A DNA stretch of 64,000 bases. Source: a virus. A program made the position numbers and the translations under genes. A model generated the notes under the pieces. The model was given only the letters and a program-made list of their open reading frames with translations, did no database searches and had not been told where the DNA came from. The stretch lies in IMG/VR virus record IMGVR_UViG_3300007722_000005, positions 28,206-92,205 of that record, one strand, 5' to 3'. The stretch's first letter is position 1. Each line of letters begins with the position of its first letter. Of the stretch, positions 944 through 55,880 are shown piece by piece.

Positions 944-1126
944 TTAGACTCTCGGGTGGGTGATCTTCGCGAACGTTTCGATACCACGAAGACGCTCAAT
1001 TTCATCAGCAGCTTCTTCGAGGATATCTGCAATACGATCTGATTTGCCTTCCTGCACACTTTTGCGGCCGGGAATTTGACGACGGATTTTGGCGCGTACT
1101 CTCAGTCTGGTAATAAGATCGTCCAT
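944..1126 (-). CDS. hypothetical phage protein, paralog of 27400..27600
   Basis: RLRxRAxIRRxIP...DRIxDILEEAAD shared with the paralog. Confidence 0.6.
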   Translation of the reverse strand: MDDLITRLRVRAKIRRQIPGRKSVQEGKSDRIADILEEAADEIERLRGIETFAKITHPRV

Positions 1127-1128
1127 AA

Positions 1129-1572
1129 TTAAATGCTAGGGGCGCCACAATTTGTGCAACCTCCTGCCATACTCCTCTGTTCGTTTTCGCAGCACAGGCC
1201 TTTGTAGTAACCACTCTCGTTGCCATCGTAAATAATTACGTGAGTAGTTATCCGCGCAATTGAAACCATGTGTTTAGTTCCTTTACTTTCCTTGATGTTT
1301 GGGTGAAAGGCAACAACCAAATCTGGCTTCTCGGCCAACATCGCCTTGTTACGAATTGGACCTGCTGCATTTTTGTATTTCTTCCAATCCGCTGGAAATT
1401 TCTTGGCGGGGATTCCATTATGGTCCGCCCAGTTGCGCGACATAATGTCAACGCCGCGGCACTCCCCCTCAATCAGCAGGGTGAAGTTGTTGACTTTGTG
1501 GAGTTCGTCGAGATGCAGCTCGAGATACTCACTATCAATCCAATCTCTATCGCCACACACAAGAACTTTCAT
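1129..1572 (-). CDS. SLOG/YspA family protein (DUF2493)
   Basis: VLVCGDRD, EGECRGVD, ADWKKYKNAAGPIRN motifs. Confidence 0.85.
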   Translation of the reverse strand: MKVLVCGDRDWIDSEYLELHLDELHKVNNFTLLIEGECRGVDIMSRNWADHNGIPAKKFPADWKKYKNAAGPIRNKAMLAEKPDLVVAFHPNIKESKGTKHMVSIARITTHVIIYDGNESGYYKGLCCENEQRSMAGGCTNCGAPSI

Positions 1573-1836
1573 AATTTTAACCTCTCTATAGCCGGGGTTC
1601 TGTTCTATCTGCTAATTCGTCTGTGAGTTTCCTCACCCTCGTCAGGTTTCAATCTGAGTCATAGGTGCACCAACCCGATATCTCGGCGAGTCACGTCATC
1701 GATATCTGTTTGGCTTGCTGCCGCTGATGTCATCGTACAAGCGACTTTCGTCTCCGATGTAGCATTTACAGCTGCTCTTGGCAGCCCCGAACTTCCTCGA
1801 CAACAAGTTGCCGCTAGCAGTCGAGAGGTTAAAATT
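1573..1836 (-). ncRNA. rnpB: RNase P RNA, compact, with reduced S-domain
   Basis: 14-bp terminal P1; P4 halves GAGGAAGUUCGGGG and AACAGAACCCCGGCUA; P2 CUGCUAG/UUAGCAG; GCAAGCCAAA; P18 GUGAG-GAAA-CUCAC followed by AGACGAAU. Confidence 0.9.
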
Positions 1837-2406
1837 TTAAACTCTTTTGGCGCCGTGACCGTCGATAGGTTTGAACGTTTTCTTTTTCATGATCTGTTTA
1901 ACATGATCGTAACTGATTGGGCAATAGTTGTGATTATCGACACCCACATCAATAGATAATGAATTTGGATCGTCTGGTAGATTCCCGTGCGAATGGCCAT
2001 ATAACTGCCACGAACCGTGGTGCGATTTGTTCCACACCTTCATTGCATAGTGCATAAGAATGATAAGCTGCTGACCTTTGCTTTTTGTTTTGTCAGTAAC
2101 TTTTAATTCAAAATAATCCTTGACCCACACAAAATGTTTTGCAACACACGGGTCCATTTTGCTGTCGTGATTGCCACGAACTAAGAACTTGCGGCCGTTC
2201 AATCTTTTGATGACCGCTTCGGCTTCATGGGGGCGAAGAAATGCAAAATCACCAACAAAATAAACTTCGTCATCAAATTGAACATGATCGTTGTGGTTAG
2301 TGATCAATGTCTCGTTCATATTATCAACATTCGCGAATGGCCGATTGCAAAATTTTATTATATTTGCGTGACCGTAATGTTGATCGCTTGTGAACCATAT
2401 TGTCAT
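1837..2406 (-). CDS. calcineurin-like metallophosphoesterase
   Basis: DxH, GD, GNHD and GHSH motifs. Confidence 0.9.
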   Translation of the reverse strand: MTIWFTSDQHYGHANIIKFCNRPFANVDNMNETLITNHNDHVQFDDEVYFVGDFAFLRPHEAEAVIKRLNGRKFLVRGNHDSKMDPCVAKHFVWVKDYFELKVTDKTKSKGQQLIILMHYAMKVWNKSHHGSWQLYGHSHGNLPDDPNSLSIDVGVDNHNYCPISYDHVKQIMKKKTFKPIDGHGAKRV

Positions 2407-2454: not shown

Positions 2455-2549
2455 TGGTGCCCCCGCCCGGATTCGAACCGAGATCATGCGCCAATCTAGC
2501 GCCAATGCCGAGGTATAAGCTCGGAGTTTTACCGTTAAACTACAGGGGT
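2455..2549 (-). tRNA. tRNA-Ile(UAU) with long variable arm
   Basis: Anticodon arm CCGAG-CUUAUAC-CUCGG, long V-arm hairpin, encoded CCA. Confidence 0.85.
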
Positions 2550-2551
2550 TT

Positions 2552-2626
2552 TGGAGCTCCAGGACAGAGTTGAACTGTCTTTCGCACTTTACCAAAGTGC
2601 AGTAATAACCATTATACTACAGGAGC
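2552..2626 (-). tRNA. tRNA-Thr(GGU)
   Basis: Cloverleaf with encoded CCA. Confidence 0.9.
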
Positions 2627-2703
2627 GTTAATAAGTCCAGCCTAAAACTTTCATCAATTTCGTTTTGACTCTAATGCTGGTGCGTTAATTATCCACATAA
2701 TTT

Positions 2704-2776
2704 TGGCACCCCATGAAGGAATTCAACCTCCGCAATCAAGGGTAGAAACCTCGACGCCGACATCATCGGATGGGGC
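2704..2776 (-). tRNA. tRNA-Arg(UCU), atypical D-arm
   Basis: Acceptor, anticodon and T arms intact; D region CCGAUGAUGUCGG. Confidence 0.75.
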
Positions 2777-2919
2777 ATTGTTAAAAGTTAAAATCCTGTT
2801 ATTTGTACAGCTATAAAAAATATCCTATAGCAACTATAACGAACCACTCTGTCAGTGAAAATTGGTAACACCAACTCGGCAGCTTGAATGCAATATATTC
2901 AAATATTTTGTCAAACATT

Positions 2920-3138
2920 TTAGTAGTGCCTTTCGTTTGGATGAAGTCGCCAAAATAACCGGCTCGCTTTCTCTGGCGCTTTGTGGTAAACATCAAACCA
3001 ATATTCGTGCACAATGTCTAGCTTCTGGTTCTTCTGCTTGTGCCCGATCCAATAGGGGTTCGAATGGCCACGAGGGCGCCACGTTTTTTCGTGGTAATTC
3101 CTGCGTAGTTGCCTGTCGAGGAATCTATACCCCCACAT
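2920..3138 (-). CDS. hypothetical protein
   Basis: ORF on the coding strand between neighbouring genes. Confidence 0.45.
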   Translation of the reverse strand: MWGYRFLDRQLRRNYHEKTWRPRGHSNPYWIGHKQKNQKLDIVHEYWFDVYHKAPEKASRLFWRLHPNERHY

Positions 3139-3279
3139 ATCAGACGTTCAGGTGCTTCTTGAGAGATTCGAGCTCGCGCTGTTTCCGAGCAACATACTTC
3201 TCATTATCAGGGTAAGCTATTTTGAAACGCTCAAGTGCACCTTTACGACGTTCCTGACGACGAATAAAACTATTCTTGA

Positions 3280-3669
3280 TCATTTTAGCTGGTCCTCCAT
3301 CTCATTAAATGCTCGACTAAGTTGTACCGATGCTATCTGAACAAGTTTTGGATCCTTGAATCCAAAATTATCAGGTAGATTTAATGTTATCACGTGTTTG
3401 TCGGCAAGGTCGAATTCGCTCGAAGTTTCCTCGAAATTCTCTTTGTTGACAAACACAACAGCATCGGACCAATGAATCAGAACGTCGTCAGCGTGGATCA
3501 ACGCAAATGTTTTTGTTGACCCTGCTGCACGTGTGTTGAAGTTGAATGGATCGTTTGATAGAATCCAAGCGACGGTCGGGGAGCGTAGCAGTCCAGCTGA
3601 GCACACACAAAGAACCTTTAACGAAGTTCCTTGGTGAGAATTAGTAGAATTGTGTTTTCTGTTATTGAT
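3280..3669 (-). CDS. low-molecular-weight protein tyrosine phosphatase-like; apparent ATC start
   Basis: KVLCVCSAGLLRS CX5R loop; frame open upstream to an ATC preceded by AGGAG. Confidence 0.8.
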   Translation of the reverse strand: MNNRKHNSTNSHQGTSLKVLCVCSAGLLRSPTVAWILSNDPFNFNTRAAGSTKTFALIHADDVLIHWSDAVVFVNKENFEETSSEFDLADKHVITLNLPDNFGFKDPKLVQIASVQLSRAFNEMEDQLK

Positions 3670-3763
3670 GATGAACTCCTTTTTGATGAAGGTTTCGTAA
3701 CTGTTTGAATATGACTATTATACGTTTTTTTTACAAAAGGTCAACAATTTTAAATTTCAAAAG

Positions 3764-3838
3764 TGGAGCAGGTGGCGGGGATCGAACCCGCGACATTCAC
3801 GTTGGCAACGTGGCATTCTTCCGCTGAACTACACCTGC
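3764..3838 (-). tRNA. tRNA-Gly(GCC)
   Basis: Cloverleaf with encoded CCA. Confidence 0.92.
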
Positions 3839-3872
3839 GTTATTACATTTCTTCGTGTGTGCTTACGCTTGT

Positions 3873-3950
3873 TGGTACCCCCGGTCGGATTCGAACCGAC
3901 ACTGTGCAGGTTTTGAATCTGCTGCCTCCTACCAATTGCGCTACGGGGGC
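3873..3950 (-). tRNA. tRNA-Leu(CAA), short variable loop
   Basis: Cloverleaf, 5-nt V-loop, A73. Confidence 0.88.
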
Positions 3951-3962
3951 ATAGTTTTTGAT

Positions 3963-4033
3963 TGGTACCCTGAGTGAGATTCGAACTCACAAAAGCTGGT
4001 TTAGGAAACCTGCTCCCGTCCATTGGTCAGGAT
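3963..4033 (-). tRNA. tRNA-Arg(CCU), truncated D-arm
   Basis: 71 nt; acceptor and T arms intact; loop UUCCUAA. Confidence 0.7.
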
Positions 4034-4034
4034 G

Positions 4035-4427
4035 TTATGTATGTATTATTGCTGAGGCGATATACTTCTGTATCTTAGCAGGTACGTTATGTGCTTTATT
4101 CATTACATCGGTCATTGTGAACTCGCTCGTGATTCCTTCTCGTGCGAAACTATATAGCGTTCCACCTGGGTGCTCAGTAGCGAGTATCTTCAACATACCG
4201 GCATCAGTAGCTGGAGCGTTGACTGCTGTTTTCTTGATCTTTACCGCCTGTGCAATGCCCATTGTATCTCGGAGCATAGACATCACCTCAGAGGGATCAG
4301 CATTGCGCATTACAGACAACACTTTACCGACGAGGACGTTGATGGCCTTATCTTTTCCAGACTTTACTTGCTCAACGGTCTTTTGATTGTCTGCAATGAC
4401 TTGGGTAATTAGTTCTTCTATTTTCAT
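4035..4427 (-). CDS. GatB C-terminal/YqeY-domain protein
   Basis: IEELITQVIADN...KSGKDKAINVLVGKVL...ADPSEV resembles the GatB tail; start moved to MKIEE to avoid overlapping a tRNA. Confidence 0.75.
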   Translation of the reverse strand: MKIEELITQVIADNQKTVEQVKSGKDKAINVLVGKVLSVMRNADPSEVMSMLRDTMGIAQAVKIKKTAVNAPATDAGMLKILATEHPGGTLYSFAREGITSEFTMTDVMNKAHNVPAKIQKYIASAIIHT

Positions 4428-4435
4428 ATGAATTT

Positions 4436-4525
4436 TGGCGGAGAGTAGAGTAGTCGAAACCCATTCCATTCCTGGAACCAACTGTTTTCGAGGCAGTGTC
4501 GTCAATCCCTGACAATTTACTCTCC
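4436..4525 (-). tRNA. tRNA-Ser(CGA)
   Basis: Long V-arm, G73, CCA. Confidence 0.88.
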
Positions 4526-4687
4526 ATTAAGTATTTTAGCGTCTTTCTCGCTGAGAGGAGTGCAACAATCTACCTTCAACTCTTCGTATGGAAGCTTTCT
4601 GAATATACGATCCCAACCTTCACGATAAGCATTGGTCGGTTGTTTCGTTTTCAGTTCGTCGCCAGTGATGTCGTTTTTTGATGTCAT
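4517..4687 (-). CDS. small hypothetical protein (56 aa)
   Basis: Own translation MTSKNDITGDELKTKQPTNAYREGWDRIFRK... Confidence 0.5.
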   Translation of the reverse strand: MTSKNDITGDELKTKQPTNAYREGWDRIFRKLPYEELKVDCCTPLSEKDAKILNGE

Positions 4688-4702
4688 AATCTATTTGTGT
4701 AG

Positions 4703-4778
4703 TGGTAGTGACCGTGGGAGTCGAACCCACCTATTCTTCCTTATGAGGGAAGCACATAAGCCGCTCTGTCAGGTCACT
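4703..4778 (-). tRNA. tRNA-Met(CAU), elongator or Ile2
   Basis: Anticodon arm CUUCC-CUCAUAA-GGAAG. Confidence 0.85.
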
Positions 4779-4783
4779 GCTGT

Positions 4784-4857
4784 TGGTGGTTCCAAGAGGA
4801 ATCGGACCTCTATATTCGCCATGTCAAAGCGACACTCTACCATTGAGTTATGGAACC
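4784..4857 (-). tRNA. tRNA-Val(GAC)
   Basis: Cloverleaf with encoded CCA. Confidence 0.88.
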
Positions 4858-4864
4858 TAATTTA

Positions 4865-4940
4865 TGGGGTGATCGACGAGATTCGAACTCGCGCTATCTG
4901 ATTCACAATCAGAGGTGCTGACCTTTACACTACGACCACC
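4865..4940 (-). tRNA. tRNA-His(GUG)
   Basis: G-1:C73, cloverleaf. Confidence 0.92.
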
Positions 4941-4946
4941 ATTGTT

Positions 4947-5019
4947 TGGTAGCGGCCGAGGGTAACGATCCCTCTCCCATCGCAGGTTATGAGCCTGGAG
5001 TCTACCACTAGAAGCCGCA
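4947..5019 (-). tRNA. tRNA-Met(CAU), initiator-like, atypical D-arm
   Basis: 1:72 mismatch; GGCUCAUAACC; short D-loop. Confidence 0.7.
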
Positions 5020-5041
5020 ATAGTCTTCTTTACTTCAATTC

Positions 5042-5118
5042 TGGTGCGCGGGCAGAGAATCGAACTCTGCAAATCCCACTTGTAAGGAGGGTGGTGTCAC
5101 CAGCTACGCTCCCCGCGC
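5042..5118 (-). tRNA. tRNA-Val(UAC)
   Basis: Cloverleaf with encoded CCA. Confidence 0.85.
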
Positions 5119-5174
5119 TTTGCGTGAAGTTATAAGGTTGTCAAGCCAACCTTCTCAAATCATGAGATGAAAAT

Positions 5175-5251
5175 TGGTCGGAGTACAAGGATTCGAACCT
5201 TGGACCCTCTGCTCCCAAAGCAGATGCGCTGCCAGACTGCGCTACACTCCG
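5175..5251 (-). tRNA. tRNA-Pro(UGG)
   Basis: Canonical cloverleaf, C1-G72. Confidence 0.95.
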
Positions 5252-5256
5252 AAACT

Positions 5257-5330
5257 TGGTGCCCCTTGACGGAATCGAACCGCCGTAAGCTGCTTACAAA
5301 ACAGCCGTAATACCATTATACTAAAGGGGC
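5257..5330 (-). tRNA. tRNA-Thr(UGU)
   Basis: Cloverleaf with encoded CCA. Confidence 0.92.
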
Positions 5331-5402
5331 AAATTATATTAATTACTTTTCTAAGTCAACTACTCGACCGCTGAGCTATCGAGTAATAATTCTATTTATA
5401 GT

Positions 5403-5615
5403 CTACGTTTCTTCCATTCCTGACGCTCCAGAGAGGCTTACACAATTTGGATCCTCTGCAATTACCGCAACAAACCGCATGTGGATGCTTCGCAACGTTG
5501 CTGCAATCGAAAGAGCGTCGCTCAAATCGCTGGCAACGTGGCCTTGTGTTACACTATCAAGCGTTGTCCAATATACTTTATATTCAGCTTTGTTCATATG
5601 TTTTACTTGTGACAC
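5403..5615 (-). CDS. hypothetical protein
   Basis: ORF inside the tRNA array. Confidence 0.55.
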   Translation of the reverse strand: MSQVKHMNKAEYKVYWTTLDSVTQGHVASDLSDALSIAATLRSIHMRFVAVIAEDPNCVSLSGASGMEET

Positions 5616-5840
5616 TATCGTTTAAGCCCGCTCAGGCCCGCACCCTCGAGGTATGTTGACCATATTTGCAAGACTCCTATGTAGCTTTCATAGGCGTAAC
5701 GCCACAAGTAAAACATTCGGCTCAGTACACCGAGAGGTATGATGAGTATCCTTTATGGTGTAGGGGACGTCCAGGCACATCACCGCGGTACACCATTTCA
5801 TCTTCTTTTGTTGCACTAAGGCGAAGAATCTTCAGAAGGT

Positions 5841-5914
5841 AACCTTTTCAACAATGTCTATTATACTACCATTTAAAGAATAGTCAACACTTTTCTTTTT
5901 ATTGTTAATTCGGC
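5841..5914 (-). repeat. 74-bp direct repeat, copy 1, carrying a sigma70 promoter (TTGACT-N17-TATAAT)
   Basis: Identical to 7343..7416 except for 1 nt in the -10 box. Confidence 0.9.
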
Positions 5915-6505
5915 TGTGTACTTCTCTTTAATTCTGTGAAGCTGTCCCGTTGCCCACTCCAAATTCCTGATGTATTGGTGTTGTTCAGAAGTTTGTTGAA
6001 CACCAACAACGGTGTTTAACCGTCGGTCAAAAAACTCTTCTGGCATGTTGTCGTGTGTTATTATAGTTCCTCTTGTAGGGAAGAATTGAACATATCTGCG
6101 CATGAATTCATTCCACTGTTCAATATGTTCAACAGGAGCTGTAAAATTAAATAGTTGAATTTCTGTTGATATCCTGAAACCAAACTGTTTTGCAAGAAGG
6201 AAGCTGAGTCCTGCTTGAACCATATCTTTTTCGACAACGAAAATTTCGTGCCGTGTTGTTTTCATCACCTTTTTGTACCACGCAATTGATTGTGGGAATC
6301 GGCAAAGATGATGGCCATGCAACTTTATAACAGTGTTTCCATTGTTCAAGCGATGAAGTAACCAATATTTTCGAAATACTGATGCAAAATTATCATCGTA
6401 ACGAGGTGCAAACGGCTCATAAATTTTGTTTTGTCGTTTGCACGAATGAAAAATAGCGCTACCATCTGTGCGGCGGTGGCTGTAAATTATTACTGGGTTT
6501 TTCAT
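5873..6505 (-). CDS. sulfotransferase-like P-loop protein (putative)
   Basis: IIYSHRRTDGSA..EPF..VIKLH pattern; preceded by TATAAATA at 6529-6536. Confidence 0.5.
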   Translation of the reverse strand: MKNPVIIYSHRRTDGSAIFHSCKRQNKIYEPFAPRYDDNFASVFRKYWLLHRLNNGNTVIKLHGHHLCRFPQSIAWYKKVMKTTRHEIFVVEKDMVQAGLSFLLAKQFGFRISTEIQLFNFTAPVEHIEQWNEFMRRYVQFFPTRGTIITHDNMPEEFFDRRLNTVVGVQQTSEQHQYIRNLEWATGQLHRIKEKYTAELTIKRKVLTIL

Positions 6506-6537
6506 AACACATCCTTTTTGAGATGTATTATTTATAA

Positions 6538-6614
6538 TGGTGCGAGTCATGGGAGTCGAACCCACACTGACCAGGTTTTAAATCTGGCGCCTCTTCCAAT
6601 TGGGCTACACTCGC
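6538..6614 (-). tRNA. tRNA-Leu(UAA), short variable loop
   Basis: Cloverleaf with encoded CCA. Confidence 0.88.
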
Positions 6615-6620
6615 GAAACT

Positions 6621-6695
6621 TGGAGCCCTGTGACAGATTCGAGCTGTCCTCTGAACTTTACGAAAGTTCTGTGTCGCCGTCTACACTTACGGGGC
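6621..6695 (-). tRNA. tRNA-Thr(CGU)
   Basis: Cloverleaf with encoded CCA. Confidence 0.85.
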
Positions 6696-6701
6696 AAAAC
6701 T

Positions 6702-6777
6702 TGGTGCGTCCCACAGGAATCGAACCTGTTTCAATGGCTCTTCAAACCACCGCTATGACCACATCAGCTAGAGACGC
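6702..6777 (-). tRNA. tRNA-Phe(GAA)
   Basis: Cloverleaf with encoded CCA. Confidence 0.9.
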
Positions 6778-6813
6778 AAATATCTCCGTTACACTATTTG
6801 TAGCTATTAAATT

Positions 6814-6887
6814 TGGAGACTCGAGACAGAGTTGAACTGTCATCTTCGGGTTTGCAATCCGAGGCACGGCCGTTATACCACCGAGTC
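6814..6887 (-). tRNA. tRNA-Cys(GCA)
   Basis: Cloverleaf, U73. Confidence 0.9.
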
Positions 6888-6893
6888 ATTGTT

Positions 6894-6970
6894 TGGTGCG
6901 CGAGGTGGGACTCGAACCCACAGAACCTACCCTCTCAAGATAGTATGTTTACCAATTTCATCACAAGCGC
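6894..6970 (-). tRNA. tRNA-Leu(GAG), short variable loop
   Basis: Cloverleaf with encoded CCA. Confidence 0.85.
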
Positions 6971-6979
6971 GTTGTTAGT

Positions 6980-7059
6980 TGGTGGAGTGAAAGAGAGTCG
7001 AACTCTAAGGCTACTAGTATGAGCGACCGCAAGGTCGCCGCCGCGATCCGAACCACCCC
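6980..7059 (-). ncRNA. Ala-acceptor tRNA-like RNA resembling the tmRNA tRNA-like domain
   Basis: G3-U70, A73, CCA and T-arm present; no D-stem; internal hairpin GCGACC-UUGC-GGUCGC. Confidence 0.6.
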
Positions 7060-7064
7060 GTATT

Positions 7065-7137
7065 TGGTACCCCATGAAGGAATTTAACCCTCGCAACTGA
7101 GCTTCGAAGGCTCTGCGCCGACATCATCGGATGGGAT
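7065..7137 (-). tRNA. tRNA-Arg(UCG), atypical D-arm
   Basis: Same CCGAUGAUGUCGG D region as 2704..2776. Confidence 0.72.
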
Positions 7138-7140
7138 ATT

Positions 7141-7212
7141 TGGCAACGGTGCACGGAGTCAAACCGTGTTGTATTTCCTTCAGAGGGAAAACCAGCTTCA
7201 AGCTTCACCGCA
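7141..7212 (-). tRNA. tRNA-Gln(CUG), short D-loop
   Basis: UUUCC-CUCUGAA-GGAAA; G73. Confidence 0.72.
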
Positions 7213-7220
7213 ATTGTTCT

Positions 7221-7297
7221 TGGTGCCCTAGAGGGGACTCGAACCCCTAAAATCTACATTCTAAGTGTAGCACGTATGCCAATTCCGTCACCAGGGC
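7221..7297 (-). tRNA. tRNA-Leu(UAG), short variable loop
   Basis: Cloverleaf with encoded CCA. Confidence 0.9.
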
Positions 7298-7342
7298 AAT
7301 ATTATTTAGATGTTATTAGTGTTGGTGTTTCCACGTTCACTC

Positions 7343-7416
7343 AACCTTTTCAACAATGTCTATTGTACTACCATTTAAAGAATAGTCAACACTTTTCTTT
7401 TTATTGTTAATTCGGC
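7343..7416 (-). repeat. 74-bp direct repeat, copy 2, with promoter (TTGACT-N17-TACAAT)
   Basis: Matches 5841..5914. Confidence 0.9.
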
Positions 7417-7437
7417 CTTGCGGCTCTCGCGTTGTAC

Positions 7438-7514
7438 TGGTGGGGGTAGAGGGATTCGAACCCACAATGACCCAGATTCAAAGTCTGGTACGCTTCCAGT
7501 CGCGTGTTACCCCT
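7438..7514 (-). tRNA. tRNA-Gln(UUG)
   Basis: CCAGA-CUUUGAA-UCUGG. Confidence 0.85.
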
Positions 7515-7520
7515 ATTGTT

Positions 7521-7594
7521 TGGTACTCCGGGAAGGAATCAAACCTTCGTGGGCCCCTTATCAAGAGGCTATCTTATCATTAGATGACCGGAGC
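7521..7594 (-). tRNA. tRNA-Ile(GAU)
   Basis: Cloverleaf with encoded CCA. Confidence 0.85.
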
Positions 7595-7600
7595 ATATTT

Positions 7601-7690
7601 TGGCGGAAAGCAGAGCGATCGAAGCCCAAACCCTTTCAGGTTCCAACCGATTAGCAATCGGCGCCGCACTCCATGCGCAATTTACTTTCC
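7601..7690 (-). tRNA. tRNA-Ser(GCU)
   Basis: Long V-arm, G73. Confidence 0.88.
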
Positions 7691-7695
7691 AAATA

Positions 7696-7771
7696 TGGTC
7701 TTTCAGGTGAGACTCGAACTCACGAAATCTTCGCCCCAAACGAAGTGGTATAGCCGCTAACCGACTGAAAG
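7696..7771 (-). tRNA. tRNA-Pro(UGG), second copy
   Basis: CUUCG-UUUGGGG-CGAAG. Confidence 0.88.
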
Positions 7772-7940
7772 ATATTCATTCCGTGTTTTCTATAGCACGG
7801 AGTATAACTTACCGGAGCCCATATAACCGTCATCAAGTGACTCGGTCTTATGAACTCCGACGTAGATTTTATTATTCACGAGTTAGTGATTTGATAGAGG
7901 CAATATTTCATGCCTCTATCGATAATAGATCTACTATGTG

Positions 7941-8012
7941 CTCCATCTCCTGGGATCGAACCAGGGACCTAGCGATTAACAGTCGCTTGCACTACCGCTG
8001 TGCTAAGATGGA
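7941..8012 (-). tRNA. tRNA-Asn(GUU), no encoded CCA
   Basis: U1-A72, canonical cloverleaf. Confidence 0.9.
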
Positions 8013-8018
8013 ATAACT

Positions 8019-8113
8019 TGGCTCCGCAGAGAGGCTTCGAACCTCTATATTGCGCCTTTCGGCCTTTACGTCTCATTAACAGTGAGGTCTCTTACCAATT
8101 AGAGTACCGCGGA
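8019..8113 (-). tRNA. tRNA-Asn(GUU) with long variable arm
   Basis: U1-A72, CUGUUAA loop, about 24-nt V region with a GCC-GAAA-GGC hairpin. Confidence 0.82.
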
Positions 8114-8164
8114 ATAAATCTTTATAATTCATATATCTCGTTGGAAATACATCAATTATAACGA

Positions 8165-8243
8165 TGGTGGGAGCGCCGGGATTCGAACCCGAATCTATCA
8201 GATTAAAAGTCTGTTGTGTTAAATCCGTTGACACCACACTCCC
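8165..8243 (-). tRNA. tRNA-Lys(UUU)
   Basis: Cloverleaf with encoded CCA. Confidence 0.88.
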
Positions 8244-8313
8244 ATTTGTTTACTACGTTTACCATCTTTCGATTTTCGTTTCATATCAAGATCCTTTTTT
8301 GATAAATATTAAC

Positions 8314-8472
8314 ATGCAAAAACTACAAAATTTTAAAGCCTTCTTTCAGCGCAATAAAAAGCAGGCTGAAGCCGAACCCCACACTGGCCCCGATCGTCGG
8401 AAAGGACCACGTCGCACTGTGACGAAGATTAAAACAAACTATACCGCGTGGCATGATCGCCGTGCTGCATAA
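8314..8472 (+). CDS. small basic protein (52 aa), on the strand opposite the array
   Basis: MQKLQNF...GPDRRKGPRR...HDRRAA; fills a tRNA-free gap; ATAAATA upstream. Confidence 0.5.
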   Translation: MQKLQNFKAFFQRNKKQAEAEPHTGPDRRKGPRRTVTKIKTNYTAWHDRRAA

Positions 8473-8475
8473 TGC

Positions 8476-8556
8476 CAAGAGTGTCCTAGGCCACTAGACG
8501 ATCTCGCACACGCCAGTAGCGTGGGTCGAGTGGGATTTGAACCCACGTCTCTCTTG
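8476..8556 (-). ncRNA. circularly permuted tRNA-like module (YrlA/Y-RNA-like), copy A
   Basis: Order T-arm, loop-closed acceptor-like stem, D-arm; ends pair CAAGAG/CUCUUG. Confidence 0.55.
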
Positions 8557-8559
8557 TTC

Positions 8560-8635
8560 TGGCGCCGAGGACGGGGATTGAACCCGCCTGAGAATGATCG
8601 ACAGTCATCCTGTATCCCCAGATAGCTACCTCGGC
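8560..8635 (-). tRNA. tRNA-Asp(GUC)
   Basis: Cloverleaf, G73. Confidence 0.85.
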
Positions 8636-8666
8636 AAATATGGAGTTGCGTAAACGCAACATTGTT

Positions 8667-8794
8667 TGGGACGCGATGGTGAGGTTTTCACTCACGACGA
8701 TTTACAAGATCGCTATCAGCTTTACCCCTCATGGTTGTAACCCCACTACTCATAAAGCATTCCTGTGGACTCGGTCACCACAGCTTCACCGCGT
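8667..8794 (-). ncRNA. 8/5-type oversized tRNA-like RNA ending in CCA
   Basis: 8-bp acceptor, 6-bp D-stem, 6-bp stem closing a 28-nt loop, V-arm, 5-bp T-stem. Confidence 0.55.
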
Positions 8795-8795
8795 T

Positions 8796-8869
8796 TGGAG
8801 CACCTGCGCGGATTCGAACCGCGTTCAATAGTTTGGAAAACTATGTCCTCTCCCAGGAGCGACAGATGC
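8796..8869 (-). tRNA. tRNA-Gly(UCC)
   Basis: Cloverleaf, U73. Confidence 0.85.
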
Positions 8870-8903
8870 ATTAGTTGAATGTCGACTATTTATAATATTG
8901 TTT

Positions 8904-8978
8904 TGGCGGCCCTGCACGGAATCGAACCGCGTTGGCTGGTTTTGGAGACCAGTGCATCACCTTTCATGCTTCAGGGAC
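8904..8978 (-). tRNA. tRNA-Trp(CCA)
   Basis: CUGGU-CUCCAAA-ACCAG. Confidence 0.9.
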
Positions 8979-9146
8979 ATAATTTAATTTGAGCTAAGAC
9001 AAAAAGGACTCGAACCTTCGCTTTCGCCAGAACCAGTTGTGCACCTACGTCTATAAACGTTTCCACAACCTTCTCAGCAACATGCAAACCCTACATTATA
9101 TCAAATTCACACAACAATTATAGTTGCAAGTGTGAACCTCAAAACT

Positions 9147-9230
9147 TGGTGGTTGTGGTAGGATTCGAACCTACTCAGCTAGTGGGCCACTGATTTACAG
9201 TCAGCTTATCTCTCCAAGGAATGCACAACC
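9147..9230 (-). tRNA. tRNA-Tyr(GUA)
   Basis: Long V-arm, CUGUAAA loop. Confidence 0.88.
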
Positions 9231-9247
9231 ATTGTAATACGAAATCT

Positions 9248-9321
9248 TGGTGGTTCTAGAAGGTAACGATCCTTCGTCGCACGATTATCAGTCGTGTGCT
9301 CTACCTTTGAGCTACAGAACC
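9248..9321 (-). tRNA. tRNA-Ile(GAU), second copy
   Basis: Cloverleaf with encoded CCA. Confidence 0.9.
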
Positions 9322-9331
9322 TAAAAGGCGG

Positions 9332-9393
9332 GAGTGTCCTACCACTATACGATTACCCTCACGAGGGTAAGTGGAAATCGAATCCACGTCTCT
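9332..9393 (-). ncRNA. circularly permuted tRNA-like module (YrlA/Y-RNA-like), copy B
   Basis: T-arm GUGGA-UUCGAUU-UCCAC, hairpin UUACCCU-CGUG-AGGGUAA, then D-arm GUAUAGUGGUAGGAC. Confidence 0.6.
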
Positions 9394-9402
9394 TTCTTTA
9401 CT

Positions 9403-9477
9403 TGGCGGTCCCAAGGGGTAACGATCCCCTTCTTCGACAGTGACAGTGTCGTGTGCGTCCATGAACACTTTGGAACC
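9403..9477 (-). tRNA. tRNA-Asp(GUC), second copy
   Basis: Cloverleaf, G73. Confidence 0.88.
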
Positions 9478-9489
9478 GAATGCAATAAC

Positions 9490-9581
9490 TGGCGGAGAGC
9501 AGAGGAGTCGAACCCCATCCCCTTTCGGGGAACCTAGTTTTCAAGGCTAGTCGACACACCAACGCGTCTGCATTACTCTCC
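9490..9581 (-). tRNA. tRNA-Ser(UGA)
   Basis: Long V-arm, G73. Confidence 0.88.
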
Positions 9582-9589
9582 ATTAATAC

Positions 9590-9664
9590 TGGTGCACCCG
9601 AGGAGAATCGAACTCCCTTTCGCAGATTGAAAGTCTGCTGTCCTAACCGGTAGACGACGGATGC
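9590..9664 (-). tRNA. tRNA-Glu(UUC)
   Basis: Canonical cloverleaf. Confidence 0.93.
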
Positions 9665-9745
9665 ATAATTCGCAGGCGTATTCCGGAGCAGCTCACGCAA
9701 GGTGAGTGCCCATTGAGTCATCAACTCAACTTACGCCATTGATCT

Positions 9746-9820
9746 TGGTGGGCCCTGTGGGATTTTAACCCACATCGTCTCGGGTAAGAGCCGAGTGTAA
9801 TAACGTTATACGAAAGACCC
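9746..9820 (-). tRNA. tRNA-Lys(CUU)
   Basis: Cloverleaf with a deviant T-loop. Confidence 0.8.
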
Positions 9821-9826
9821 ATAATT

Positions 9827-9900
9827 TGGAGCGGGATAGGAGAATCGAACTCCTTTAACTAGTTTGGAAGACTAGGACACAACCAATATGCCAATCCCGC
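9827..9900 (-). tRNA. tRNA-Gly(UCC), second copy
   Basis: Canonical cloverleaf. Confidence 0.92.
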
Positions 9901-9906
9901 GTTGTT

Positions 9907-9981
9907 TGGTGGAGGCCGAGGAAATCGAATCCTTCTAGTCAGAATCCTTGCAAAGGATACCCGTAACCCATTACTGCCCCC
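9907..9981 (-). tRNA. tRNA-Ala(UGC), reduced D-arm
   Basis: G3-U70; AUCCU-UUGCA-AGGAU arm; short D region. Confidence 0.78.
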
Positions 9982-27638: not shown

Positions 27639-27713
27639 TGGCGCTCCCGGTGGGAATCGAACCCACTGTCTCGGTTTTAGAGACCGCTGCCGCAACCAAT
27701 TGGCTTCAGGAGC
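27639..27713 (-). tRNA. amber suppressor tRNA (CUA), Trp-like body
   Basis: CGGU-CUCUAAA-ACCG arm, G73, canonical D and T arms, encoded CCA. Confidence 0.9.
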
Positions 27714-27719
27714 AAATAT

Positions 27720-28409
27720 TTATATCAACTTCCAGTTTGAAATTGGCATTAAACCATAACTTTTAGCTTCAACAGTTTTATATGTAAACACGATGTCCCC
27801 AGCGAGGCAAATTCTCATGTTTTCTGGCCCTATCTTTGAGGGAATGCTGTTCTCACGAAGTGTATATTCATTTTCCTCACCAGACCCCGTAAAATGATCA
27901 ACAGACGCGGGAAACACAAGCAACATTCCTTCGGTTGGTAGTATGCTAAAGTTGTGGGCGTTGAACTCATTCCACTCGGTTGCGTTCTGTGAATATATGT
28001 TTTTGTAGAATTGATTGGGACGAGGAGAAATAAAACAGATTCTATCCGGTGTAAATGATGTTGGAATGTTGACGTAATAAACAAACGACAACTGAGCGTC
28101 AGCGTGGTTGTGCACAGGGACACTCCAATCCTTCGTTATCATCAGCCACGACTTAACTATGTATAGGTTTTGAAATTCAGGATCGAGGCCGCACTCTTTT
28201 ATATGGTCCTTAACCGCACGACCTATGAAAGCATACAGATCAGCAAAAGCAACACCGTGTTGAAGATCGTTGTGACCCGTGTTTTCGTTAGATTGGAGAT
28301 TGTCGTTGCTGTGTTGAGGTAACACGTTAAAGAATGCTGGCTTAAATTCAGCAAATCGTGGATATACACTCTCCGTTATAAGAGTGGGAAACAGTCTGTG
28401 CTTTTTCAT
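27720..28409 (-). CDS. 2OG-Fe(II) oxygenase (TIGR02466-like)
   Basis: LFPT, HNH, SFVYYV, FPASVDH, RICLA. Confidence 0.82.
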   Translation of the reverse strand: MKKHRLFPTLITESVYPRFAEFKPAFFNVLPQHSNDNLQSNENTGHNDLQHGVAFADLYAFIGRAVKDHIKECGLDPEFQNLYIVKSWLMITKDWSVPVHNHADAQLSFVYYVNIPTSFTPDRICFISPRPNQFYKNIYSQNATEWNEFNAHNFSILPTEGMLLVFPASVDHFTGSGEENEYTLRENSIPSKIGPENMRICLAGDIVFTYKTVEAKSYGLMPISNWKLI

Positions 28410-54962: not shown

Positions 54963-55880
54963 CTATTGGGTTACACCAGCGTCCTTACGAGATTTTGCAA
55001 TATAATCAGTAAACTTCTTTGATCCGAAGATGCTTGGACTCCAATACAGGTTGTTGTTTTTGTAGTATTCAACTACGTCCTTATCTTGCAACACATCCAT
55101 CATCAGAGCAGAGTAGAAATTAATTACCTGTTTTGATACTCCTTTTGGAAGTATAATTCCATATCCACCACTGAACGCGAAACCGGGGAGAACTTCACTC
55201 AGCGCAGCTACGTTTGGTAGGTCAGGTAAGCGGTTTTCACTTGTAACAGCCGCAATTCCTACCTTACCATCGCGGTATATCTCTGCGACTGAACCGACAG
55301 GAAGTATTGCATAATTAATATGCCCACCTTGAATGTCGGGGATTATTTGCCCACTCGATTTATACGGAACAAGTGTTGCTGTTCCTTTCACCACTTTTAA
55401 CAGGTCGTTTGCTCGTGCGATTTGACCTTTACTTGACACACCAATTGTTGTTTCAACCTTGTTGAGGTTAGATATGAAATTGGGTAGAGTTCCTACTCCA
55501 ACAACCGCGAAATAAATTTTTGATGCTATAGTAATATATTCAAAATCGGCCGCGGTATACTCCTGCACGCCTTTATAGAAGATATCATTGTATACGAAAT
55601 GCGATCCGATACCACTAAACGCGAAATAAGACCCATCCTTTGGTTGCCGGTGGAAATAATTAATACCAACAACACCGCTGCCACCAGGTCGGTAATCACG
55701 AAGCACTTTGATACCCCTCTTTTCGATAGCTTTGTAAATTGGCGCCAACGCCGCGTCGGTTGATGACCCAGCTGGATACGATACCACGACTACTAGGTTC
55801 GTTGGTTTAAATTCTGCATGTGTTTTGATAGTGAACCCGAACAGGACCAAACATAAAACAACTATTGATAATATTTTCAT
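54963..55880 (-). CDS. Bug/TctC tripartite tricarboxylate transporter substrate-binding protein
   Basis: Signal peptide, YPAGSSTD, PGGSG, VPYKS, RLPDLPNV. Confidence 0.88.
   Translation of the reverse strand: MKILSIVVLCLVLFGFTIKTHAEFKPTNLVVVVSYPAGSSTDAALAPIYKAIEKRGIKVLRDYRPGGSGVVGINYFHRQPKDGSYFAFSGIGSHFVYNDIFYKGVQEYTAADFEYITIASKIYFAVVGVGTLPNFISNLNKVETTIGVSSKGQIARANDLLKVVKGTATLVPYKSSGQIIPDIQGGHINYAILPVGSVAEIYRDGKVGIAAVTSENRLPDLPNVAALSEVLPGFAFSGGYGIILPKGVSKQVINFYSALMMDVLQDKDVVEYYKNNNLYWSPSIFGSKKFTDYIAKSRKDAGVTQ

Follow-up and report, generated by a model that had tools for sequence, protein, structure and literature searches.

Sequence evidence that a T4-like phage encodes a reduced RNase P RNA of bacterial type A beside its tRNA array

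Can a phage that carries a large tRNA array also carry the RNA enzyme that matures tRNAs? RNase P RNA is regarded, to our knowledge, as a universal cellular ribozyme, and the question was raised by an earlier note, made from the letters of the DNA, which placed such an RNA in a 264-nt intergenic stretch of a viral contig. The DNA that was analysed, here called the window, measures 64,000 nucleotides and covers positions 28,206 to 92,205 of the IMG/VR virus record IMGVR_UViG_3300007722_000005, a contig of 92 kb with an estimated completeness of about 51%. Its proteins and its occurrence in metagenomes identify the source as an uncultured, T4-like freshwater virus: the contig encodes T4-type gp23 capsid, gp20 portal, gp18 sheath, gp15, terminase, family-B polymerase, clamp loader, UvsX and UvsW proteins, and its DNA was found in freshwater metagenomes of 2017 and also in an estuary sample of 2022. 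In the latter, the RNA stretch was identical in contigs from three runs and, as there were no variants, no micro-covariation could be read; no RNA-sequencing source of the contig DNA is listed among the public runs.

A search with cmscan, using permissive filters and window positions 1400-2000 (601 bases), aligned the stretch from end to end with the bacterial type-A model RF00010 (RNaseP_bact_a), at 1573-1832 on the minus strand and over model positions 1-367, with 63.5 bits and an E value of 5e-19. Thus, the Infernal search with Rfam models that the earlier note had proposed returned a full-length covariance-model match at the expected place, below the gathering score. Within the RNase P clan, the bacterial type-A model gave the best match, and it matched only once on the whole 92-kb contig (E 1.8e-20). 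Despite the full-length alignment, the score stays under the 100 bits that Rfam sets as gathering score for RF00010, which is why a default Rfam scan of the window returned tRNAs only. The shortfall arises because 18 nt stand for 110 model positions (P10-P14 and their junctions) and because P3 is short. The predicted fold has a minimum free energy of -84.5 kcal/mol (z = -3.3), a value equalled by none of 200 shuffled sequences, and the sole ORF overlapping the stretch has 36 codons. Starting right after the stop codon of ORF 1837-2406 and running up to the ATG (at 1572) of ORF 1129-1572, the RNA gene leaves no nucleotide of the intergenic space unused and is therefore flanked by two protein genes, not by tRNAs; a promoter and terminator scan found no site of its own adjoining it. 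Judged by its sequence, the stretch is the gene for a true RNase P RNA homologue, a reduced form of bacterial type A, with the following parts:

1573-1836, minus strand: whole RNA gene, 264 nt, from the 5' end to the 3' end of P1, delimited by the RF00010 match, the P1 ends and the ORF limits
1823-1836, minus strand: P1 5' strand AAUUUUAACCUCUC, 14 bp with 1573-1586; 10 of 10 modelled pairs compensatory in the family
1815-1820, minus strand: P2 5' strand CUGCUA, pairing with 1609-1614; 5 of 6 pairs compensatory, 100% of cells paired
1798-1813, minus strand: P3 hairpin of 6 bp, CGGCAA, loop CUUG, UUGUCG; 94% paired, 5 of 5 pairs compensatory
1785-1798, minus strand: CR-I, the P4 5' strand, GAGGAAGUUCGGGG with a bulged U, pairing with 1589-1603 as 3 bp, bulged U and 5 bp
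1780-1784, minus strand: P5 5' strand CUGCC, pairing with GGCAG at 1718-1722
1723-1772, minus strand: specificity-domain remnant, with outer GCUG/CAGC, inner CAUCG/CGAUG, GGAG, a GAC-GAAA-GUC hairpin and CG..AC
1714-1718, minus strand: J5/15 GCAAG, invariant in subgroup alignments, at the position of E. coli A248
1669-1714, minus strand: P15 (GCCAA/UUGGU), P16 (GAUAUC/GAUAUC), P17 hairpin and L15 GGGUU loop, aligned to model P15-P17
1642-1657, minus strand: extra hairpin between P15 and P18, UCAG / AUUGAAAC / CUGA, with a conserved UGAAA loop motif, outside the standard type-A model
1623-1636, minus strand: P18 hairpin GUGAG-GAAA-CUCAC, directly before J18/2; 97% paired, 4 of 4 pairs compensatory
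1609-1622, minus strand: J18/2 AGACGAAU and P2 3' strand UAGCAG, from the model alignment and reading of the sequence
1589-1603, minus strand: CR-V, the P4 3' strand, ACAGAACCCCGGCUA, pairing with the CR-I strand
1573-1586, minus strand: P1 3' strand GAGAGGUUAAAAUU, with GAGAGG inside, 8 nt ahead of the following gene's ATG

All the elements of the catalytic domain that had been named beforehand, namely, P1 with its 14 bp, P2, P3, both halves of P4, P5, a stem in the P15 region and the P18 GAAA hairpin, were thereby located. With the bacterial type-A RNAs (rnpB; E. coli M1 RNA, Thermotoga maritima P RNA; RF00010) the window RNA has in common P1-P5, P4 with its bulged U, P15-P16-P17 with the L15 GGU, P18 with a GNRA loop, the J5/15, J18/2 and J2/4 motifs and, at the level of the phage family, the P6 pseudoknot. 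It differs from them in being virus-encoded and in measuring 264 nt against a model of 367 positions; in the lack of P8-P9, P11-P14 and CR-II/CR-III; in a P3 of only 6 bp, far shorter than that of E. coli; in the P4 variant GAGGAAGUUCGGGG / AACCCCGGCUA; and in the extra hairpin between P15 and P18. The motifs of the core are kept (L15 GGGUU, J5/15 GCAAG, J18/2 AGACGAAU and ACAGAACC). The L15 sequence CGGGUU aligns to CGGGUa of the model, is invariant in the subgroup and contains GGU, the putative motif for pairing with tRNA 3'-RCCA; for the J5/15 position, one study describes a contact of E. coli A248 with substrate N-1 (PMC10465520).

Relatives were sought in three ways, from a phosphoesterase gene nearby, from motifs of the two P4 halves and from a motif of the subgroup, with RF00010 run on whole records. 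Reduced RNase P-like RNAs of 228-419 nt were detected with RF00010 in jumbo phages whose genomes are complete and have terminal repeats (G001, G007 and G049), the smallest, of 228 nt, in G001. The RF00010 scores of the other family members range from 21 to 67 bits, except for the 191 bits of the copy in G058, a complete phage of 168 kb. This 330-nt copy, at L070 1501-1830, lies above the cut-off, lacks P13/P14 only, keeps P8-P12 and has the P4 variant of the phage type; from these features it looks like an intermediate between the full-size RNA and the cut-down forms. The order of P18 followed by J18/2 is the same in this fuller copy and in the window.

The nearest relatives of the window RNA (L081, L085, L090 and L100) are about 57-59% identical to it in an alignment that includes the flanks. 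When five close relatives were aligned, with P2 treated as a pseudoknot, 94.3% of cells were paired and 37 of 69 pairs showed compensatory changes, a result reached by none of 500 shuffles, with slid alignments giving 25-42% paired cells and 0-7 compensatory pairs. A covariance model built from this alignment, R1, matched phage and metagenome contigs at 42 places (E 1e-5 to 1e-82), which give 37 distinct sequences. In the resulting 37-member alignment 91.8% of cells are paired, 56 of 62 pairs are compensatory and the covariation score is 0.549, as compared with 33-45%, about 29 pairs and 0.06-0.09 in slid controls. As the alignment was fitted to R1, it favours structure, a bias that the slid controls and the independent Rfam matches guard against.

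Helix by helix, P1, P2, P3, P5 and P15 are 89-100% paired with nearly all pairs compensatory, and the two helices of the P15-P17 region are 96% and 85% paired, with compensatory changes, in the 37-member alignment. In P4, 97% of cells are paired, 6 of 8 pairs are compensatory and the bulged U is kept across the 37 sequences; its geometry of 3 bp, bulged U and 5 bp is maintained through compensatory changes on both strands, as seen in AG-U-UCGGGG/CCCCGGCU of the window, AAG-U-CGGGA/UCCCGCUU of L100 and GCGA/UCGC of the cultured phage described below. The extra hairpin covaries as well (UCAG/CUGA, CCAG/CUGG, CCAC/GUGG, CCGC/GCGG, CCGG/CCGG and CUGG/CCAG in six sequences; 99% paired), and its UGAAA loop presumably resembles a T-loop motif, which we take as only a lead. 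As read from covariation and motif conservation, the catalytic-domain fold, that is, P1-P5 with the P4 pseudoknot, P15-P17 with the L15 GGU, J5/15, J18/2 and P18, is under selection in the phage family.

The specificity domain has not been kept. The claim that most of it is missing holds, with 110 model positions reduced to 18 nt, and the stub inside the GCUG/CAGC helix, put at about 45 nt in the earlier note, measures 42 nt; of the P8-P9 arms and of the P11-P14 region, with its CR-II/CR-III, nothing remains. CR-II/CR-III are the modules that, in the bacterial enzyme of solved structure, read the tRNA T/D-loop elbow. As for the GCUG/CAGC helix itself, which had been taken for P7, it is present in the window, but only 64% of cells pair in relatives, so that its identity as a conserved P7 was rejected. 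The inner helix of the stub, CAUCG/CGAUG (GUGG/CCAC in relatives), has 97% of cells paired and, on this comparison, is the better homologue of P7/P10; GGAG and CG..AC of the stub are invariant in the subgroup alignments.

Forms without most of the specificity domain exist in nature. The archaeal type T RNAs of the Thermoproteaceae are natural and functioning, and their P10 ends in a small loop or is absent, the same kind of stub as in the phage RNA (PMC3579882). An intact catalytic domain and a specificity domain that is mostly lost are thus common to both. However, type T is a cellular gene with an archaeal-type catalytic domain, several archaeal proteins, a contracted P15 and P5/P15 linker and a P2 of 3 bp (PMC3579882), whereas the window RNA has a P2 of 6 bp, the bacterial GCAAG in J5/15 and its best match in bacterial type A. 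By this comparison the phage RNA is of bacterial type-A descent and its likeness to type T is convergent: it would work like type T without being a member of it. Laboratory deletions of the specificity domain are also known, including the E. coli C-domain ('CP RPR') and the 'Mini/Micro P' RNAs, from which the phage RNAs differ in being natural and conserved; the E. coli C-domain alone still cleaves substrates, though less efficiently, whether C5 protein is present or not (PMC5839562). The small natural P RNAs of Mycoplasma are cellular and retain the core of the specificity domain, and the phage RNAs go down to 228 nt (G001). The P RNA of Mycoplasma fermentans has about 276 nt.

The P6 pseudoknot, formed by J5/7 with L17, covaries in the family: sequences pair with their own partner strand over a mean of 5.5 bp, as compared with 4.3 bp in cross-pairs, and none of 2000 permutations attained the mean of the own pairs. 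Examples are GAGAGA/UCUCUC, GCAAGGGA/UCCCUUGC, GAGUAGG/UCUACUC and CUGCUUA/UGAGCAG. In the window RNA, which has the type-A P16 and P17, P6 is reduced to GAG/CUC, at 3 bp the weakest in a family whose other members have 5-8 bp; in specificity-domain-less E. coli constructs a P6-like contact matters (PMC5839562).

This weak P6, the position between protein genes rather than tRNAs and the many related phages that have no such RNA would all fit a decaying, non-functional remnant of a captured and once-functional rnpB. We consider such decay of the window copy improbable, since every helix except P6 is intact and the 14-bp P1 is perfect, the conserved core motifs are all present and the gene fills its intergenic gap exactly. 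Concerning its distribution, R1 had no match in nine T4-like phages, namely, phiN3, phiM12, Mosig, Melnitz-3, T4, KVP40, S-CRM01, S-SCSM2R and S-SRM01. Since many tRNA-rich T4-like phages, T4, KVP40 and S-CRM01 among them, do without the RNA, it must be dispensable for running a tRNA array. When the window region and the RNA of the cultured phage DLP6 were used as BLASTN queries against the deposited phage collection, nothing besides DLP6 itself was returned, because the family is too diverged. Six matches of the subgroup motif in bacterial genomes, and likewise L099 and L101 in the viral set, were discarded as chance, the P4 halves being absent nearby.

Among cultured phages, Stenotrophomonas phage vB_SmaS-DLP_6, or DLP6, comes closest in its capsid protein (70% identity). 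DLP6 carries a copy at KU682439.2 105774-106018 (L114 5775-6019) that is matched by R1 (154.9 bits, E 5e-50) and, independently, by RF00010 (28.5 bits, E 4e-7). The copy lies inside the cluster of 30 tRNAs, where a stretch free of annotation separates a hypothetical gene from a tRNA-Arg; the GenBank record leaves the stretch blank, and RNase P is not mentioned in the DLP6 paper (PMC5349666). In the same array region ARAGORN lists 38 tRNA genes, as against 30 in that paper. The RNA also lies inside a same-strand tRNA array in G001, where 5 nt separate it from the preceding tRNA and 2 nt from the following one, and in L081, L067 and L070; it lies near such an array in L085, L090, L076, L100 and the window. 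In two other phage contigs, L071 (2298-2620) and L067 (6578-6966), genes for tmRNA are no more than a few kb away from the RNase P-like RNA.

The ORF that follows the RNA in the window, 1129-1572, is a YspA/SLOG-family gene (PF10686) whose Pfam match begins at residue 1, and GAGAGG in the 3' strand of P1 is, from its sequence and spacing, likely its ribosome-binding site. Folding of P1 would therefore hide this site, and a mainly cis-acting RNA may be conceived, in which folding or excision controls translation of the SLOG gene. The 8 nt between GAGAGG and the ATG at 1572 and the ORF starts found directly after the RNA in several relatives speak for it. We hold it highly improbable as the main role, for it explains neither why a whole RNase P core is conserved nor the copies flanked by tRNAs instead of ORFs, and any such control would be at most a secondary effect. 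In L085 and L067, as in the window, an ORF starts directly after the RNA. One assembled contig (run X1) joins a sequence like window 1044-1073, with one mismatch, straight to 1559, which points to a co-occurring strain with the 3' end of the RNA and without the SLOG gene.

The presumed substrates lie upstream of the RNA, so that its reported position downstream of a tRNA array, on the same strand of a T4-like contig, is upheld. They comprise:

2455-9981, minus strand: tRNA array, with 29 standard tRNAs and about 10 tRNA-like genes at relaxed settings
2704-2776, minus strand: mini-D-arm tRNA-like gene, Arg UCU
3964-4035, minus strand: mini-D-arm tRNA-like gene, Arg CCU
4947-5019, minus strand: mini-D-arm tRNA-like gene, CAU anticodon
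7065-7137, minus strand: mini-D-arm tRNA-like gene, Arg UCG
7141-7218, minus strand: mini-D-arm tRNA-like gene, Gln CUG
9907-9981, minus strand: mini-D-arm tRNA-like gene, Ala UGC

All tRNA genes of the window are on the minus strand. Among the 30 tRNAs found with ARAGORN, CCA is encoded in 29, the T-loop is TTCRA in 26, the D-loop has GG in 29 and N(-1) is U in 18. Encoded CCA fails as a universal correlate of the RNA, being found in only 4 of the 15 tRNAs of G001. In the six mini-D-arm genes, which were read by eye, the acceptor stem, anticodon loop, T-arm and CCA are good, and the D hairpin is miniature and adjoins the acceptor stem without the 8-9 connector; three of the six lack C56 and one has an AUCGUUA T-loop. 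Missed by ARAGORN defaults and by Rfam, they supply the only Arg and Ala anticodons found in the array. An automated detector of such genes was dropped for counting, as it fires on ordinary U8-A9-G10 starts. Three ARAGORN tRNAs have odd T-loops, AUCGUUA or UUAAAAU. A class of T-loops with A54 and U58 instead of T54 and A58 (AUCGUUA/AUCGUAA) occurs at 9248-9321, 9403-9477 and 4947-5019 of the window and in the DLP6 array (L123), and looks, from its sequence, like a swapped reverse-Hoogsteen pair. Two tRNAs of 95 nt, Ile(UAU) and Asn(GUU), at 2455-2549 and 8019-8113, have long extra arms that are unusual for their isotypes, and a lone tRNA with a CUA anticodon, of the amber suppressor type, is found at 27639-27713, about 18 kb from the array.

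In all, roughly ten of the approximately 40 genes of the array deviate in the D or T loop, and most tRNAs are canonical. Odd T-loops are commoner in two carriers of the RNA (4 of 29 in the window, 7 of 38 in DLP6) than in two non-carriers (1 of 28 in KVP40, 0 of 34 in S-CRM01), a comparison of two related genomes with two; several other carriers have wholly canonical T-loops. Thus, the proposal that the ribozyme is suited to phage tRNAs with abnormal D and T loops draws support from the deviant genes and from their greater frequency in two carriers, but it is at odds with the canonical majority and with the fully canonical carriers, and the link between the RNA and the odd tRNAs is only suggestive.

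The same observations bear on the idea that the RNA is an active ribozyme whose main substrates or partners are unlike those of classical RNase P, for instance in processing the tRNA-like genes of deviant elbow or further transcripts of the phage, and perhaps with a phage protein in place of RnpA. The six mini-D-arm genes, the several A54/U58-type T-loops, the unequal share of odd T-loops in carriers and non-carriers and the UGAAA-loop hairpin conserved in the subgroup would be in keeping with it, and the authors who described type T likewise allowed for an unknown subunit (PMC3579882). Still, the phage tRNAs are mostly canonical, both here and in other carriers, and no candidate protein was found to co-occur with the RNA, as the neighbouring genes differ between the window and DLP6, for which reason an upstream gene common to both was also rejected. 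We deem this reading unlikely.

With regard to the protein partner, no gene for RnpA (PF00825) was found in the contig of the window or in five complete carrier genomes (G001, G007, G049, G058 and DLP6), in a search that was positive for 10 of 14 reference genomes used as control. A bacterial-type holoenzyme of these carriers would consequently have to use the host protein, and the gene content is consistent with the suggestion of a borrowed host RnpA; as the contig is only about 51% complete, the window's phage may still have a protein cofactor of its own. At 54963-55880 of the window, a gene has a match (E 4e-12) to PF03401, the family of TctC/Bug periplasmic receptors, which is very abundant in Burkholderiales, and this gene is a possible hint to a host of that order.

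The lack of a phage RnpA gene would also suit an RNA that acts as a sponge or competitor, retaining the catalytic-domain surface for protein binding and capturing host RnpA so as to shut down or redirect the host RNase P while being a poor enzyme itself. Loss of the specificity domain and a weak P6, such as the window RNA has, are changes that lower the activity of engineered E. coli RNAs (PMC5839562). However, a decoy has no need of the L15 GGU, the J5/15 GCAAG, the bulged U of P4 and J18/2, all of them conserved in the family, and a phage with about 40 tRNA genes needs RNase P activity, not its inhibition, which makes competition for RnpA quite an unlikely role.

We favour, with a probability of roughly 0.6, the reading in which the RNA is a functional ribozyme that matures the phage pre-tRNAs with the help of host RnpA. 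This functional reading is preferred because the core for the acceptor end and the chemistry is intact and selected, because engineered C-domains cleave and because archaeal type T exists. The RNA would be co-transcribed with the leftward tRNA array and the neighbouring genes and would fold through its 14-bp P1, its ends being trimmed by host nucleases. It would then bind host RnpA, a step proposed because the carrier phages examined encode none, and the RNA-RnpA enzyme would remove the 5' leaders of phage pre-tRNAs. Recognition would depend on the acceptor stem, on the encoded 3'-CCA through the L15 GGU, on N(-1) through J5/15 and on the leader through RnpA, and the T/D-loop elbow would not be measured. 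The benefit may be added, phage-controlled capacity for tRNA maturation in an array of about 40 genes, possibly with greater tolerance of its elbow-deviant tRNAs.

It is tempting to speculate further that the phage owns a private tRNA-maturation enzyme without elbow recognition, which seizes host RnpA and reads the acceptor stem, CCA and leader alone. This might free the evolution of mini-D-arm and altered-T-loop tRNAs that host enzymes, or tRNA-targeting defence nucleases, handle poorly, and the UGAAA-loop hairpin might be a new module for docking or substrate contact that replaces the lost domain. We put this extension forward tentatively and find it rather doubtful.

Phage tmRNAs and the stable RNAs of the T4 tRNA cluster are likewise non-coding genes that lie in or beside phage tRNA arrays and are co-transcribed with them, and they belong to different RNA families; those of T4 are of unknown function. 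No description of a virus-encoded RNase P RNA came up in full-text literature searches, in a survey of huge phages, in one of virus tRNA clusters, in the paper on DLP6 or in one on mycobacterial ncRNA. As far as we found, the phage RNA is the first RNase P RNA described from a virus; what is new is a type-A form with a viral gene and with the specificity domain mostly gone. Being below the Rfam threshold, the reduced phage RNAs are invisible to routine annotation; the copy in the cultured phage DLP6 opens bench tests, both biochemical and genetic. Conserved viral RNAs poor in the specificity domain would form, in the bacterial lineage, a counterpart of archaeal type T and a natural experiment on how little RNase P RNA is needed in vivo, and tRNA 5'-maturation would join the translation functions that large phages bring with them.
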